DNA of 64,000 bases from Escherichia phage heid, in sequence record MN850577.1. One strand, written 5' to 3'. The translations under genes were made by a program, and so were the position numbers. The notes below the pieces were generated by a model that ran no database searches, was not told the origin of the DNA, and was given only the letters and a program-made list of their open reading frames with translations. Below are positions 1 to 45,903 of this stretch, piece by piece (positions within the stretch are counted from its first letter, which is position 1; the number at the start of each line of letters is the position of its first letter).

Positions 1-1228
1 ATCTTTACAGACCTTATCTCACAAGGTCTAACACGGTACTAACAAGGTATCTTATAAGCCTGTTATTACCTGTATTTTTAAAAGACTGTCTAGGTAATTA
101 TTCAGAATCTTAAAATTTTTATAAAATAGGACTATCAAGTCATTTTTTAGGGTCTTTGAAGGAACTGAAAAATATCTGTAGAAGATGTATATCTGCTTGG
201 TAGCCCTTAACAACTCCCTTACAAGTACTTTGCAAAATTTTAAAATATCCTTAACAATTTCTTAACAACTCTCTCAAGCTCTTAACAACCCTTCAAAGGT
301 CTTAACAGATTCTTAACAGAACTAACAAGGCTGTAACAGTTTTCTAGGGATTGGTAACAATACCAATTAACAAGTGCTGAATAGGCTTTACAGAATCTTA
401 ACAGATGACTAACAAGAGCTAACAAGTTAATTTTAAAGAGTTATTTTGTTAAGATAATTAACAAGTCTCTAACAAGTGTTTAATCTTTTTAACAAGCTAT
501 TAACATGGTCACTATCTCTTGGTCTATAGTTCCCTTTCCCTCTTAGTGATTCTTTAAACATACCTCTTAAAAGCTCTCTATAGCTCTTTATAAGCTCTTT
601 TAAGTCTCTTCCTAGTAGTTACACCCCAACTATACAGAAAGCTCTTTATAGGGCTTTACAGGAGCTTTTAAGGCTATGTCAAAGGCTCTTACAAGGTTTT
701 TACATGGTCTTAACAGAGATTTAACAAGGGGCTAACAAGTTGCTAACAAGTGCCTTAAAAGCATAACTATGTAGGGTTTGTTAAGAAATTGTTAAGAAAT
801 TGTTAAGAAAATGTTAAGGGGGCTAGCATTTACGTAACTTTTAAGCTACTTTATAGCCCCTATAACATACTTTTAAGACACTAACAAGCCCTTTTTAGAT
901 ATTCACAAGATAGCTAACGAGATGATAAAGCTTACACCCTTATAAGATTCTTTTAAGGCTGTAGGAAGCTTTATAAAGAGCTTTTAAGGGTGAGTTAATG
1001 CAATCCCTTAAGTTAGGTTGATAAGGCTGTTATAGAGCTTTATAGAGCGTTTAAACGGTTGCCCTTCCCTTTCGGGTTATGGGCTTTTATTTAAGTTGAT
1101 TTGATAAGAGATTATAGAGTAGACTATAGAGTTATTGCTTTTAAGGTCTGGTAAGATTCTATCGAATCAGTAGGGTAGATTCTGGAAAGGAAAGGAAAGG
1201 GATTGTATAGAGGTTATTACATAGACGT
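1..1228. repeat. Non-coding A+T-rich region packed with short repeats: over 25 copies of CTTAACA(A/G)/CTAACAAG, often phased at about 11 bp, a tandem GTTAAGAAATT x3 at 779-818, and recurring AGCTCTTTATA and CTTTTAAGG motifs
   Basis: Read directly from sequence; no ORF of 60 aa or more on either strand; lies just 3' of the early-array terminator. Confidence 0.6.
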
Positions 1229-4055: not shown

Positions 4056-4254
4056 TGTTATTTTTTACTACTTTTAAAACCGCACGATAGCCTAAGCAAT
4101 AGGAATCACCGAAGAGCGACCGACCCATGAAGGAGTCCTCTGTAATATCTTTCGCCGTGACGGTTTTTTCTACGCCGTGAAAGAGAACTACATCACCGAC
4201 TTTAATATCTTTGATGTGTGTAGTTTCAATGGTTAAACCGTTAATAATAGCCAT
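4051..4254 (-). CDS. Hypothetical small early protein (67 aa)
   Basis: ORF with family A element upstream. Confidence 0.5.
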   Translation of the reverse strand: MAIINGLTIETTHIKDIKVGDVVLFHGVEKTVTAKDITEDSFMGRSLFGDSYCLGYRAVLKVVKNNK

Positions 4255-4360: not shown

Positions 4361-4765
4361 TTAGAGTTCTGCATAAATTGCATCACAGATACCACGAAAA
4401 TCATGATTTGTCAAATTACGTTGTAACCAAGTGGCGAAAAAGTCAGCGATTGCAAAGTTAGCGTCATACTCGACAGATAGCCACACTTTAACAGCAAACC
4501 GAAACATTTTCAAATCAAGCTCTTTATTCATTACCTTAGATTTGCCTAACATGTCGGACATTTCATATTGTGCACCGTCTAGCGTGATACCTGCTGCAAC
4601 GTCAGCCAATGAGTTTTTTACGTTTTCAACGTCTAAGATAACGCTTTGAATCTTCCCAATAATGTTGTGCAATGTTTCGTCCGGTGCTGATGACGTAATA
4701 ACATTAATCCGGTTAACGGTCAAACGTGCTTTTAAGATTGATAACTCGCGATTATTAATAGCCAT
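4361..4765 (-). CDS. Hypothetical early protein (about 134 aa; ATG at 4765, the track start is a TTG)
   Basis: SD GGAGAA 7 nt before ATG. Confidence 0.5.
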   Translation of the reverse strand: MAINNRELSILKARLTVNRINVITSSAPDETLHNIIGKIQSVILDVENVKNSLADVAAGITLDGAQYEMSDMLGKSKVMNKELDLKMFRFAVKVWLSVEYDANFAIADFFATWLQRNLTNHDFRGICDAIYAEL

Positions 4766-5834: not shown

Positions 5835-5926
5835 TTTTGAGTCTCCTAGTTTAAGGGTTAATTTGATAAAGCTCTTTATCTGGGGCTTAAGATATCAACT
5901 TTTAAGCCCCTTGTAAAGTACTTTAT
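5835..5926 (-). promoter_or_regulatory. Family B intergenic element (hairpin 5882-5910 with stem GGGGCTTAA/TTAAGCCCC and a different loop; palindrome 5911-5926)
   Basis: Stem conserved while the loop differs from the other copies. Confidence 0.45.
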
Positions 5927-6183
5927 CAGATTAAATTGCCAGTTAATGATAAGTGCATTTTGTAACCTTGTTTAGTGAATACGTTCACTTTACCGAGTGT
6001 TTTTACACCTTTAAAAAGGTTATTTGAACTGCGTTTTAAGGTTAAATGTTTATCAGCCTTCACGCCCCACCTTACATTAGATTGTTTTCCGTTGTCAACC
6101 ACTTTCCCGCATAACTTTTTAGCCATAACGCGAGCGTCATCACGAGTTTTTGCAGCAATTACAACGTTTTTGATAATAGCCAT
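5926..6183 (-). CDS. Basic hypothetical small protein (about 85 aa; ATG at 6183)
   Basis: ORF; same SD context as 4361-4765. Confidence 0.5.
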   Translation of the reverse strand: MAIIKNVVIAAKTRDDARVMAKKLCGKVVDNGKQSNVRWGVKADKHLTLKRSSNNLFKGVKTLGKVNVFTKQGYKMHLSLTGNLI

Positions 6184-6273
6184 TTTTAAGTTCTCCAATT
6201 TAGGATTTAGTGGTAAAGCTCTTTATCTGGGGCTTACTTTATCGAACTATAAGCCCCTTGTAAAGTACTTTAT
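6184..6273 (-). promoter_or_regulatory. Family B intergenic element (hairpin 6229-6257, palindrome 6258-6273 containing stop codon 6270-6272)
   Basis: Conserved repeat copy. Confidence 0.45.
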
Positions 6274-6650
6274 TTAATTTTGAAGATAGTTACGTAACCA
6301 TCACTACCGATTATTTGAGACACTCCAGCTTTTTCTACTTGATAGCCCATATTTTCAAGATGATAAACAGCATCATCATAACCATATGCGCCACCCTGAT
6401 AACGTCTCTTATCGCATTTTATCAGGTTTTTACCACGTCCCGCAAGTGCATGCAAAATGGCTTTTTCACTTGAAAGAGTACCATCTAGCATTGTCGCCGT
6501 GTAATGGTTGATTTTATTCCCGTTAATATCATACTTGAAATTGAACGAGTGAACAACAATAACGTTACCTTTAAAATTCTCATCAAGTGACTTCTCCAGT
6601 ACGCTACGAAAGTTGTCTTTGTTGATGAATTTAGGTGCACGATATTTCAT
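6270..6650 (-). CDS. Hypothetical early protein (126 aa), first gene of the early array
   Basis: ORF with family A element and a strong promoter upstream. Confidence 0.5.
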   Translation of the reverse strand: MKYRAPKFINKDNFRSVLEKSLDENFKGNVIVVHSFNFKYDINGNKINHYTATMLDGTLSSEKAILHALAGRGKNLIKCDKRRYQGGAYGYDDAVYHLENMGYQVEKAGVSQIIGSDGYVTIFKIK

Positions 6651-6745
6651 TTTTGAATCTCCTAGTTTAAGGACTTTACTTAGTGGGGAGCGTCATTCCC
6701 CCCCCCGTTGATGCAAATACTAGATAACCCCGTTCAAAGAGTCAA
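6651..6745 (-). promoter_or_regulatory. Family A variant: -35 TTGACT (6740-6745), 17 bp, -10 TAGTAT (6717-6722), stem-loop 6685-6706, SD AGGAG
   Basis: Best sigma70 match in the array. Confidence 0.55.
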
Positions 6746-6866
6746 TAAAAATTTTAAAAATATTTTTGGCAAAACTGTAATGAAACGGGTGCGCACGACT
6801 ACCACAAAACAGAACGCAAATCAAGAATTATTTTTCAATCCGCTACAAATTTTTCTCTTGACTTTT

Positions 6867-6902
6867 GGGGAGAGGGGGAGTAAGAGGGGGAGAGGGGTTG
6901 GG
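6867..6902 (+). other. G-tract cluster (GGGG AGA GGGGG AGTAAGA GGGGG AGA GGGG TT GGG), a canonical G-quadruplex-forming motif
   Basis: Five G-runs of 3 or more with loops of 2-7 nt, in an otherwise AT-rich genome. Confidence 0.5.
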
Positions 6903-6922
6903 CTGGCTGTCTATAAAAACCT

Positions 6923-7100
6923 ACCTGCACAATTCTAAAATGATTTTTCTTGCCCGACCTGAGCGGGGTCTGCACGTTTTGAAAATGAAAAAGCTCTTTG
7001 GAGATTACCTGCACAGTTTGAAAATGAATTTTCTCTTTGGAGTTCAAAATTTTCTCTACAGATTTCTCTACAGAACTCTACCTGCACAATTCTGAAATGA
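6923..7100. repeat. Four direct repeats of about 21 bp, (T)ACCTGCACA(R)TT(Y)TGAAAATGA, at 6923, 6970, 7007 and 7080; two copies extend to a 38-bp tandem unit ending CTCTTTGGAG
   Basis: Read directly; non-coding region between the macro-like gene and the early-array promoter. Confidence 0.6.
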
Positions 7101-7173
7101 AAAAGCCCTCCTTACCTGAAAAATTTACCAGATAAGAAAGGCTTAGGCTATTGTGAATATTCTACAGAGTTTC

Positions 7174-7959
7174 TTAGTTCTTTGCGTCTAAGAAGGTAAC
7201 TTCTGGTGAAGAGAAAACTGTCTCGATATCCTCATCAGTTCTTGCATAGATATAAGTATCTGCATCACTGCCAAATGTTACTGCAATCCTGTGATTGCTC
7301 TTCGACAGGTGGGTAACTAGAGCGTTACTCAGAGACATCTTTTCAACCGGAGGGTTACTTTGATGTATCTTACCTTTTCTTCGTCTGAAGAGGGTAACTG
7401 CGTTATCTGTGAACACTGCTACACCTGCAAAGTATTCTGGTTCACAGTAGTTCTTCCAACCTGAGCGTAACTTGTGGTACATCTCTCCTTCGTAGACATA
7501 AAGATACACATCTACACTCTTCATCACCTGATTAATGATAACTGTGACGGCTTGAGGGTCTAGCCCACCGATACCTGCACCAATCATAGGTAAACCAACC
7601 TTCTTCAACTGGTTGACTTCACAGTATCTGTTAAGCTGTTTCAAAGATGACTCTAAAGCACTGTATCGGGCATCTTTACCAGTCTTAAGCTGAGTGTAAA
7701 GGTTAGCTATACGACCTTGTTTTAAACGTGCTACAGAGAAATTACCCAGTAAATTTTCACAGGGTTTGTGTCCTATACCACCTGCATATAGATAAACTTC
7801 TGTATCGGTCTCATATGCTTTTGGGTAAAGTTTAGAAATCTTGTCAGCGATACCTGCACCCATTAAATTCATACAGTTGCAACCGTGACCGATGATGTCA
7901 AACTTACCTTTATCAAATGCGGCAAAGATATCACCATTGATTATTTTTACAATACCCAT
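7174..7959 (-). CDS. Macro-domain-like protein (261 aa), tentative ADP-ribose binding/hydrolase fold, with a C-terminal extension of unknown function
   Basis: Motifs GHGCNCMNLMGAGIA and LPMIGAGIGG resemble the macro-domain N-x-x-N/G-rich loops; call from motif memory only. Confidence 0.4.
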   Translation of the reverse strand: MGIVKIINGDIFAAFDKGKFDIIGHGCNCMNLMGAGIADKISKLYPKAYETDTEVYLYAGGIGHKPCENLLGNFSVARLKQGRIANLYTQLKTGKDARYSALESSLKQLNRYCEVNQLKKVGLPMIGAGIGGLDPQAVTVIINQVMKSVDVYLYVYEGEMYHKLRSGWKNYCEPEYFAGVAVFTDNAVTLFRRRKGKIHQSNPPVEKMSLSNALVTHLSKSNHRIAVTFGSDADTYIYARTDEDIETVFSSPEVTFLDAKN

Positions 7960-8159
7960 TTAACATCTCTCCCAAGATTCTTTATCTTCTGAAGGTTTTA
8001 CACGTTGCCCCTCATGGTCTACCCAGATACATCCACAACCTTCACAGATTACTGGCATTGCATAGCCAGCTTTAAAGTCATCTTCAGTGATAAGACCTTT
8101 TAAGTCACCTGTATCACGTCCAAACATTTCTATAGAACAGTCTTTGCAGAAGTCAGCCA
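7960..8159 (-). CDS. Small Cys-rich protein (about 66 aa), putative zinc-binding
   Basis: CxxC and CEGCGC motifs; ATG overlaps the stop of the upstream ORF. Confidence 0.4.
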
Positions 8160-11213: not shown

Positions 11214-11273
11214 TGGTTCTCCTGTTTAGTTTATCGTGACAACAATTATACAGTACTCTGCACAAAATACAAA

Positions 11274-11300
11274 TAAAAAAGGCCGCCGAAGCAGCCTTTT
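11274..11300 (-). terminator. Intrinsic terminator after the rIIB-like gene
   Basis: Minus-strand RNA hairpin GGCUGC-UUCG-GCGGCC (one G-U pair) followed by U6. Confidence 0.55.
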
Positions 11301-37033: not shown

Positions 37034-37290
37034 GTAAGCCTCTTTTAAGTAACTATTAAGTTTTAATCTTTTATCTTAACGTATTCTATACGTTATACTT
37101 TAAAGCTTTTTAAAAGCTATTAAATAATCTTTTAAGAGTTTTAAAGTATCTGTATAGTTAAACTGTTAAGTAACCTTTTAAGTAAAAACCCACTTCGCAA
37201 AGATTAACACCTTGTCAAGTACATTGTCAACTTGCTTTTTATAATTTTTTGCAGTAATGTATGAGGTTAATGATTTTAGAGGGAGTAAAA
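37034..37290. promoter_or_regulatory. AT-rich divergent intergenic region at the strand switch, with repeated CTTTTAAG motifs and TTGTCAA/TTGACAA elements
   Basis: 257 bp non-coding between the divergent operons; motifs read directly. Confidence 0.4.
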
Positions 37291-45398: not shown

Positions 45399-45611
45399 AT
45401 GGCTCTTAAAAAGTTACATCCCAGAAGCGGTTATGGTAAGATAATTGACGATACAGACGGCTTTACAGTCTTTACAGTTATCTGTCAAGATGATTCACAG
45501 ATTGAAAAGGCTCTTGACGATTATCTTAACGATGAACGTGAAAAGGTCAGGGCTACTAACATAGACTCATTAATTGATACTTCACGCAAACGGAAGAAGA
45601 AAGATGAATGA
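45399..45611 (+). CDS. Hypothetical protein (70 aa)
   Basis: ORF. Confidence 0.4.
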   Translation: MALKKLHPRSGYGKIIDDTDGFTVFTVICQDDSQIEKALDDYLNDEREKVRATNIDSLIDTSRKRKKKDE

Positions 45612-45903
45612 GGTTTTTGACCCTTATGCCCCACAAGATGATTGGGAGGCTGATAGAGAGGCTGAAATGGAGAGTTATATTTGTCCAATGGATGTAGACG
45701 AAATGAGAGACTTCGTTGCACATCGTTTTAAGAGAGAGATTAAATCCAGAGGTCTTTCTCAAGAGCAAGTTGCTAAAATTTGTGGTATCTCTCAGGCTCG
45801 TGTGTCCAACATAATTCATCTCACTGGTAATGTCTCCCTTGAGTATATGTTGGAAGTATGTGAAAAATTTGGTGTTAATTTTAATTTAAGGTTGGCAGAT
45901 TAA
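45604..45903 (+). CDS. HTH (XRE-like) DNA-binding protein (about 99 aa)
   Basis: LSQEQVAKICGISQARVSNIIH helix-turn-helix pattern. Confidence 0.5.
   Translation: MNEVFDPYAPQDDWEADREAEMESYICPMDVDEMRDFVAHRFKREIKSRGLSQEQVAKICGISQARVSNIIHLTGNVSLEYMLEVCEKFGVNFNLRLAD

Follow-up and report, generated by a model that had tools for sequence, protein, structure and literature searches.

Escherichia phage heid (sequence record MN850577.1) is represented here by a 64,000-nt stretch of DNA, hereafter the window, whose genome is that of a Felixounavirus (a Felix O1/wV8-like myovirus); positions 6000–8000 matched 235 phage records, at 97% identity at best. Our subject is an array of four direct repeats in the ~520-bp gap (6651–7173) that separates a macro-domain gene from a gene for a 126-aa protein. 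An earlier note, made from the letters of the window, had placed a non-coding region with a G-quadruplex (G4) motif and these repeats between the macro-like gene and an early promoter. This anatomy was right, and the promoter is a good sigma-70 match (TTGACT-17-TAGTAT, preceded by an A/T-rich element); we add that it and all genes surrounding the array lie on the minus strand. Read along that strand, the macro-domain gene is followed by a rho-independent terminator, the four repeats, a G-tract (C-rich in this direction), an A/T-rich block, the promoter, a leader hairpin built on a run of nine G residues (G9) and the 126-aa gene.

Each unit, read in the direction of transcription, is ~28 nt long and follows the pattern W5-TCATTTT-N6-GTGCAGGTA, with GTGC(AGGTA) at its end. 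It opens with an A5 or T5 tract, its information content reaches maxima at TCATTT and GTGC, and the TCATTTT and GTGC boxes stand ~11.5 bp apart, about one helical turn, and hence on the same side of the helix. All four units have the same orientation, with start-to-start spacings of 73, 39 and 45. The array is ~190 bp long; it starts in the tail of the terminator, unit 1 beginning within the T-tract, and ends ~180 bp before the promoter. The 5′ flank of unit 4, AGGTC(G/T)GGCAAG, is conserved out to Erwinia phages. The direct repeats that the earlier note had pointed out are all there (6923, 6968/6970, 7007 and 7080), and so is its TTTCTCTACAGA duplication at 7050–7074; the repeat consensus it had written down is one base too long and therefore matches one copy only at up to three mismatches.

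A weight matrix built from the units was scored on both strands of the complete 88,421-bp genome of phage Pr103Blw, where the units reached 28–35 bits and the next best site 14.8 bits, leaving a single locus. Within the window, no further copy occurs at up to two mismatches, except a partial one behind another terminator (~11276). This partial fifth unit (CCTTTTTTATTTGTATTTTGTGCAGAG; window 11240–11300, minus strand) follows terminator t2 and runs into a promoter-like TTGTAT-16-TATAAT, and the terminator at ~9486 also ends in TTTTTCATTTCAG. Scanning IMG/VR with the exact pattern (15 specified bases) returned mostly chance single matches, with clusters only in Ounavirinae contigs.

Conservation of the array extends well beyond close relatives. 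All 23 Felixounavirus/Mooglevirus loci in IMG/VR that span the gap carry four units in register, and four are retained even in clades whose macro protein is 64–70% identical; a contig with a 41%-identical macro gene and a different terminator still has three. Distant BLAST searches followed by inspection located the same array in Hafnia phage Zyzzx, Erwinia phage phiEa104 (Kolesnikvirus) and Citrobacter phage Mijalis (Mooglevirus), where it again lies between a macro-like gene with its terminator and a promoter. Each has three or four high-scoring units, the fourth of the Hafnia phage being weaker. The macro-domain gene and the array are syntenic in all four genera, and copy number stays at 3–5. 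For the Erwinia phage the unit spacing is 37/37/39, for the Hafnia phage 43/53; overall it ranges over 36–75 bp, as expected for independent binding sites. The TCATTTT and GTGC boxes are constant across genera, and the 3′ end varies by genus (AGGTA, ATAG or TTATAA). Because the boxes are kept in four genera while the flanks of the units diverge, the pattern reads as a footprint of selection on the boxes and not as recent exchange. Identity of the gap to distant clades is 0.65–0.91, equal to or above that of the macro coding sequence. A nearly invariant block next to the spacer segment described below has 37 of its 45 columns (6823–6867) unchanged between clades and an identity of 0.82–0.91 to distant ones. 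Judged by these comparisons, the array behaves like a selected, single-locus, non-coding cis-element. Coordinates of the features are collected in Table 1.

Table 1. Features in and around the gap at 6651–7173 of the window, in minus-strand order (bit scores are those of the equivalent units in Pr103Blw)
Feature	Position	Strand	Remarks
Macro-domain (phosphatase-like) gene	7174..7959	-	Pfam Macro, E=1e-7; PHROG 335; 29 related loci
Rho-independent terminator (Felix O1 't13')	7103..7144	-	17-pair stem; T-tract enters repeat unit 1
Repeat unit 1, CTTTTTCATTTCAGAATTGTGCAGGTAG	7078..7105	-	28.1 bits
Tandem TCTGTAGAGAAA x2, second small repeat family	7050..7074	-	also in Hafnia phage Zyzzx, there after the last unit
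Repeat unit 2, AAAATTCATTTTCAAACTGTGCAGGTAA	7005..7032	-	35.5 bits
Repeat unit 3, CTTTTTCATTTTCAAAACGTGCAGACCC	6966..6993	-	30.7 bits
Repeat unit 4, AAAAATCATTTTAGAATTGTGCAGGTAG	6921..6948	-	34.2 bits
Exchangeable 54-nt segment, unit 4 to AAAAGTCAA	6867..6920		two unrelated alleles; window has allele A
G-rich purine tract	6865..6902	+	G4 motif 6867-6902 plus mirror repeat 6865-6899
Nearly invariant 44-45-nt block	6823..6866/6867		back-to-back AGTCAAGA / TCTTGACT arms
Early sigma-70 promoter TTGACT-17-TAGTAT	hexamers 6717-6745; with A/T-rich upstream element 6717..6768	-	consensus scan
5′ untranslated region hairpin GGGGGGGGGAATGACGCTCCCC of the 126-aa gene	6685..6706	-	built on the G9 run
First gene of the terminal small-gene cluster, 126 aa	6270..6650	-	open reading frame; PHROG 4495, function unknown

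The array is not mentioned in the papers on Felix O1, wV8, UAB_Phi87 or PhageMaP (Bas63). In the Felix O1 paper, the direct repeats listed are confined to perfect ones of at least 24 bp elsewhere in the genome, and temporal transcription control is described as not understood (PMC3185647). Felix O1-like phages, which are classic Salmonella typing phages, are now candidates for therapy and biocontrol; the array offers a single-locus, subfamily-wide, non-coding element as a testable target.

Several identities for the array were considered and rejected. It is not protein-coding on either strand, as clades differ by 2-nt and 4-nt indels and no frame is kept across genera. Open reading frames (ORFs) have been annotated over it, namely wV8 gene 13 in sense and Pr103Blw_00144 and Mijalis118 in antisense orientation; frame, start or length is lost between lineages (wV8, Mooglevirus, Erwinia and Hafnia phages), and the variable columns of the best-conserved block are distributed 13/12/13 over the codon positions, showing no bias. 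The three annotated genes are probably spurious. A structured RNA was likewise dismissed, the fold z-scores being −1.9 (minus strand, owing to the terminator) and +0.6, so that apart from the terminator the folding exceeds shuffled sequences in no way; Rfam gave only chance-level miRNA matches, all outside the region. Nor are the units sigma-70 promoters in either direction: the consensus scan, for −35 and −10 hexamers 16–18 nt apart, found none in the array, and by eye neither the candidate −10 positions nor any −10/−35 pair is kept from clade to clade. Promoters of a phage-specific class were rejected on the ground that the motif is confined to one locus.

Because four IMG/VR contigs stop in the gap, we asked whether the genome ends or is packaged there. 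In Pr103Blw, however, PhageTerm assigned a direct terminal repeat (DTR) of 581 bp, which maps instead to window positions 199–823, 5.8 kb from the array, and this position rules the idea out. The stretch homologous to the DTR (199–890) puts a physical genome end inside the window. It is rich in CTTGTTAAGA-like repeats at 10–11-bp intervals, with 16 of the 86 loose matches in the window, and Pr103Blw has CTTGTTAAGA-like families of 7–8 copies; these repeats at 199–890 may be a packaging or end-replication signal.

Between 6651 and 7173 there is no DnaA site (TTWTNCACA), no exact integration host factor (IHF) consensus, with two one-mismatch IHF matches against 1.3 expected, and no GATC; sites for DnaA, IHF, Fis and Dam are not enriched. 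GATC is in fact absent from both strands of the whole window (1–64000), where dinucleotide-shuffled sequences contain 178 ± 11, a complete avoidance of the Dam/MboI/DpnII site. Compared by eye with the consensus sequences, the units bear no notable likeness to sites for sigma-E, sigma-32, sigma-54, the marbox, Fur, ArgR, CRP or LexA, and A-form units resemble the UP-element at ~11/14 positions. The iterons of the F and P1 plasmids may share the short words ACAAATTG and TGTGC.GG with the unit, a likeness to which we give no weight.

Next to unit 4 lies the G4 motif singled out by the earlier note, GGGGAGAGGGGGAGTAAGAGGGGGAGAGGGGTTGGG, with five G-runs (4, 5, 5, 4 and 3) on the plus strand at 6867–6902. 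Its rarity was borne out. By the rule of at least four runs of at least three G with loops of 1–7 nt, it is the sole such motif on either strand of the 64 kb, as against 0.04 per window in dinucleotide shuffles, and its G4Hunter score of 2.36 (cut-off 1.5) is the maximum of the window. The same tract contains TTGGGGAGAGGGGGAG-TAA-GAGGGGGAGAGGGGTT (6865–6899), a perfect 16+3+16 mirror repeat with a purine core of 14+3+14 and the only mirror repeat in the window with arms of at least 10 nt; as a perfect purine mirror repeat it is a textbook H-DNA motif. The Mooglevirus tract has a different sequence and keeps 12 of 14 mirror positions, with two changes that occur symmetrically on both arms, which, on a single deep split, hints at selection for mirror symmetry. 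A parallel exists in the nuclease-hypersensitive G4/H-DNA elements found ahead of promoters, such as NHE III1 of c-MYC: the G-tract, too, is purine-rich, obeys both the G4 and the mirror-repeat (triplex) rules and stands ~120–155 bp ahead of a strong promoter, in a place where negative supercoiling builds up. The G-tract differs in being a bacteriophage element that is optional in the population, and we know of no factors that bind it.

This optional status follows from the structure of the 54-nt segment, which occurs as two unrelated alleles: allele A with the G-tract, found in 68 GenBank records, and allele B, found in 140. With allele B in about two-thirds of the Felixounavirus records, the element cannot depend on the G4 tract, and in this respect the interpretation given in the earlier note is not supported. 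C-rich remnants of allele A are visible in Erwinia and Hafnia phages. The presence of the tract in about one-third of otherwise near-identical isolates provides a natural comparison, allele A against allele B, of the effects of non-B DNA on phage transcription and replication.

The tract also leaves marks on sequencing. Four independent assemblies stop or lose quality where the C-rich strand is copied across it, a pattern which suggests that the G-tract forms a polymerase-blocking structure. Among them is the KhF1 record (GenBank KT184313; our locus L160, 1–130), whose N-rich, degraded start of ~130 nt ends at the G-tract, exactly the place at which sequencing along the C-rich strand would just have passed through it. 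The ends of this record overlap by ~250 nt within the gap, so that it was opened at a sequencing failure and not at a terminus. Three IMG/VR contigs of metagenome 3300045988 (L007, L008 and L017) have assembly artefacts in the gap. L007 and L008 end on the same mid-tract base, L008 then entering Nextera adapter after ...CTCTTACTCC (4083–4122), and L017 (4010–4198) is a chimera, joined after unit 3 to foreign sequence that we take, from its protein sequence, to be the start of E. coli mukB on the reverse strand. A further contig, L023, ends 36 nt beyond the tract. The G-tract thus breaks assemblies and lowers read quality in KhF1 and several IMG/VR contigs, and contig ends at this place, being assembly artefacts, should not be taken as genome termini.

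The analysis shows how the locus is built, that the array is unique, conserved and non-coding, and that its neighbour segment has two alleles. Our preferred reading, a tentative one, is that proteins bind the array and that it insulates and controls the boundary from the terminator to the early promoter, with protein binding and a regulatory or insulating effect as its putative roles. The gap would then be a conserved non-coding control region that parts a long operon, which ends in a highly stable terminator, from the terminal small-gene cluster, whose first promoter is a strong sigma-70 one, and each 28-bp copy would be the site for one sequence-specific DNA-binding protein, with the A5/T5 tract in front of the boxes bending the DNA. 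Four occupied sites behind the terminator could form a nucleoprotein block that stops read-through and determines how active the promoter or promoters downstream are, or when they fire. The 54-nt segment would serve as a replaceable spacer; its allele A, predicted to fold into G4 or H-DNA, may be a supercoil-sensitive or polymerase-blocking extra that is not required.

The units are probably occupied, if at all, by a factor that Enterobacterales hosts have in common or by a core protein of the phage. One phage candidate, conserved in Felixounavirus, Mooglevirus and Suspvirus, is an XRE/Cro-type helix-turn-helix (HTH) protein (window 45574–45903, plus strand; Pfam HTH_3, E=6e-10); we rejected it as the binder because tblastn did not detect it in the array-bearing Erwinia and Hafnia phages, which points to a host factor or another core phage protein. 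Several points weigh against a protein-binding control module. The HTH protein, the only recognisable phage candidate tested, does not match the distribution of the array, and no other binder was recognised. The units also lack a match to a DnaA, IHF, Fis or CRP-type consensus (CRP by eye). They stand 180–380 bp upstream of the promoter, which is far for a classical operator. Such sites are also missing from the other promoters of the downstream cluster, about ten in number, so that a simple repressor would control only the first promoter. Finally, a single-copy repeat array suits a replication origin or another unique cis-site equally well. The operator or enhancer array proposed in the earlier note is supported in that the array is unique, non-coding and conserved across four Ounavirinae genera, and is not supported by its distance from the promoter, which is too great for a classical operator.

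Among known systems, the central transcriptional control region of phage phi29 offers a parallel to a bound array of this kind. It contains four p4 sites between early and late promoters, and like the array it is a single locus rich in CTTTTT/CATTTT words that lies between transcription units; a complex bound there would bend the DNA and set promoter use. The array differs in that its sites are direct rather than inverted repeats and lie 180–380 bp from the only good promoter, with no early/late promoter pair known. We know of no p4 or p6 homologue in this phage. Conserved intergenic repeats of the early region, flanked by variable small genes, are also known as the T4-type promoter-early stem-loop (PeSL) cassettes and as DR_1 and DR_6–DR_9 of Felix O1/wV8; those are promoter-plus-hairpin elements placed before many genes, whereas the array units are neither and occupy a single locus.

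The main rival reading, that the array is a replication origin, seems to us unlikely; its single-copy nature and its layout are in favour of one. The units would be initiator-bound iterons, and the asymmetric tract with the A/T-rich block would be an unwinding or priming site aided by the nearby promoter. Iteron origins such as lambda ori and those of the P1 and F plasmids, as generally described, consist of several same-orientation repeats of ~20–28 bp at one non-coding locus per replicon, with an adjoining asymmetric or A/T-rich stretch and an inverted repeat, and all of this has a counterpart here. Against the at least three direct repeats (~17–28 bp) at a single locus by which such origins are recognised, the array has four, and one locus per genome with 3–5 direct repeats is conserved across genera. 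Lambdoid origins are laid out in a similar way to the sequence seen here, in which the repeats are followed by a purine/pyrimidine-asymmetric tract and then by a block of 72–75% A/T that contains an inverted repeat of 8 bp, and the strong terminator shields the array from incoming transcription. Erwinia units end in CTATGCACA / TTATGCACG, a 7/8 match to the DnaA box TTATNCACA, whereas Felixounavirus units match it at 5/8 only. The phage encodes a T7 gp4-like primase-helicase and has no known origin (PMC3185647).

Other features weigh against the origin reading. The spacing of the units is irregular (36–75 bp) and not helically phased, the region lacks DnaA and IHF sites and GATC, and no initiator gene was recognised among the eight neighbouring ORFs searched with Pfam and PHROGs or in the Pr103Blw annotation. 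The array lies 27–31 kb from the primase-helicase and polymerase genes, and the tract beside it is replaced by an unrelated allele in two-thirds of the genomes. There is no GC-skew turn at 7 kb, where cumulative skew falls steadily before turning at 36–38 kb; as phage skew mostly follows transcription, this point counts weakly. The origin with iterons that the earlier note had raised as an alternative lacks these classical hallmarks, and a better classical candidate lies at ~37.1 kb. There, a competing cluster of three GTTACTTAAMAG copies (window 37042–37186) is found next to the DNA polymerase gene, in a divergent intergenic region where the skew turns. Its three copies of GTTACTTAA(A/C)AG carry 0–1 mismatch, and by classical criteria this cluster is the better candidate for an origin or an early-control region.

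We regard it as quite improbable that the units have no sequence-specific function at all. On that account they would be decayed duplicates of a terminator tail, and the conserved island would be a homology patch for the exchange of flanking modules. Unit 1 does coincide with the terminator tail, the 3′ stem arm TCAGGT..GG is common to units 1 and 4, and two other terminators end in the same TTTTTCATTT / TTTTTTATTT..GTGCAG (PMC3185647, Table 2). Both flanks of the array are mosaic, exchangeable DNA, with macro alleles of 41–100% identity, two spacer alleles and 0–2 extra genes. Duplicates in decay, however, would hardly keep the TCATTTT and GTGC boxes in four genera while the flanks of the units diverge, nor would their conservation equal or exceed that of coding DNA or their copy number stay at 3–5.

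Very improbable, in our judgement, is an element of the plus strand, in which a promoter with its −35 hexamer TTGACT at 6859–6864 would cross the array and yield an antisense RNA or a small repeat protein (the ORFs of Pr103Blw and Mijalis). Felixounavirus and Mooglevirus show no variation in TTGACT or in the A/T-rich stretch preceding it, and the hexamer recurs in the Hafnia phage. All variants of allele B that we saw have, 17 nt away, a fair extended −10 (TGnTAGCCT or TAGTCT); allele A, that of the window, has TAAGAG, which lacks the key final T. One frame per unit is open and reads LHxxKM, yet neither frame nor start is kept: wV8 has a deletion of 2 nt, the frame meets stops in Mooglevirus, Erwinia and Hafnia phages, and three loci have lost the ATG. 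The evenness of the variable columns over codon positions (see above) speaks against coding. In that direction there is also no terminator, no RNA fold signal and no Rfam family.

Hardly any credence can be given to the analogy by which the array and its structure-prone neighbour would be a pause or boundary site for DNA entry, like the T5 injection stop signal (iss), with proteins on the four units holding the incoming genome until the terminal small genes have acted. The distance from the array to the right physical end is 6.7–6.9 kb (7.6–7.8% of genome length), and beyond the array comes a terminal block of ~13 small genes, many with their own promoter repeat, which look like host-takeover genes. 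The iss is also a large untranslated, repeat-filled region, more conserved than its neighbour genes, which lies 7.9% from the genome end and likewise bounds a terminal small-gene block (Davison, bioRxiv 10.1101/866236). The array region, in contrast, has no paired DnaA boxes or large inverted repeats and lies outside the 581-bp terminal repeat, and the genes downstream of it point towards the genome end. Our literature search found no report of two-step DNA transfer for Felix O1-like phages; an entry pause, if true, would make this the first Felix O1-like myovirus with genome delivery in two steps.

Some features of the locus have been annotated in relatives. The terminator is also annotated in wV8, XTG1 and ASO1A, and Felix O1 t13, with a free energy (dG) of −21.8, is the most stable among the values legible in Table 2 of the Felix O1 paper (PMC3185647). 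The promoter, with its upstream element, is annotated as such in ASO1A and lies under DR_6 in wV8. Inside the leader hairpin, the C9 run of the plus strand is the longest homopolymer of the window; the G9 run is interrupted in locus L006 and in KhF1 (GGGGAGGGAATGACC), and the annotations of XTG1 and KhF1 treat the hairpin as a plus-strand terminator. Comparison of eight neighbouring ORFs with Pfam and PHROGs recognised the Macro domain alone, the remainder having no known function.

Relatives vary on either side of the array. Upstream, the macro gene occurs in alleles of 100%, 64–70% and 41% identity. Downstream, relatives (loci L006, L015, L016, L018, L019, L029 and others) have 0, 1 or 2 extra small genes between 6651 and 6716, after the promoter, so that the gap to the 126-aa gene measures ~520, 800 or 1000 nt. 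The small genes downstream of the array are mostly preceded by a promoter-plus-hairpin cassette, TTTACA..GGGGCTTA..TAAGCCCC..TAAAGT, which corresponds to DR_7/DR_9 of wV8 and resembles the T4-type PeSL cassettes. Such cassettes lie at 238–287, 1308–1357 and 1687–1736 of locus L001 and at 4700–4790 of L006, and the weak Rfam 'miRNA' matches at 5850–5939 of the window may be a hairpin of this kind.

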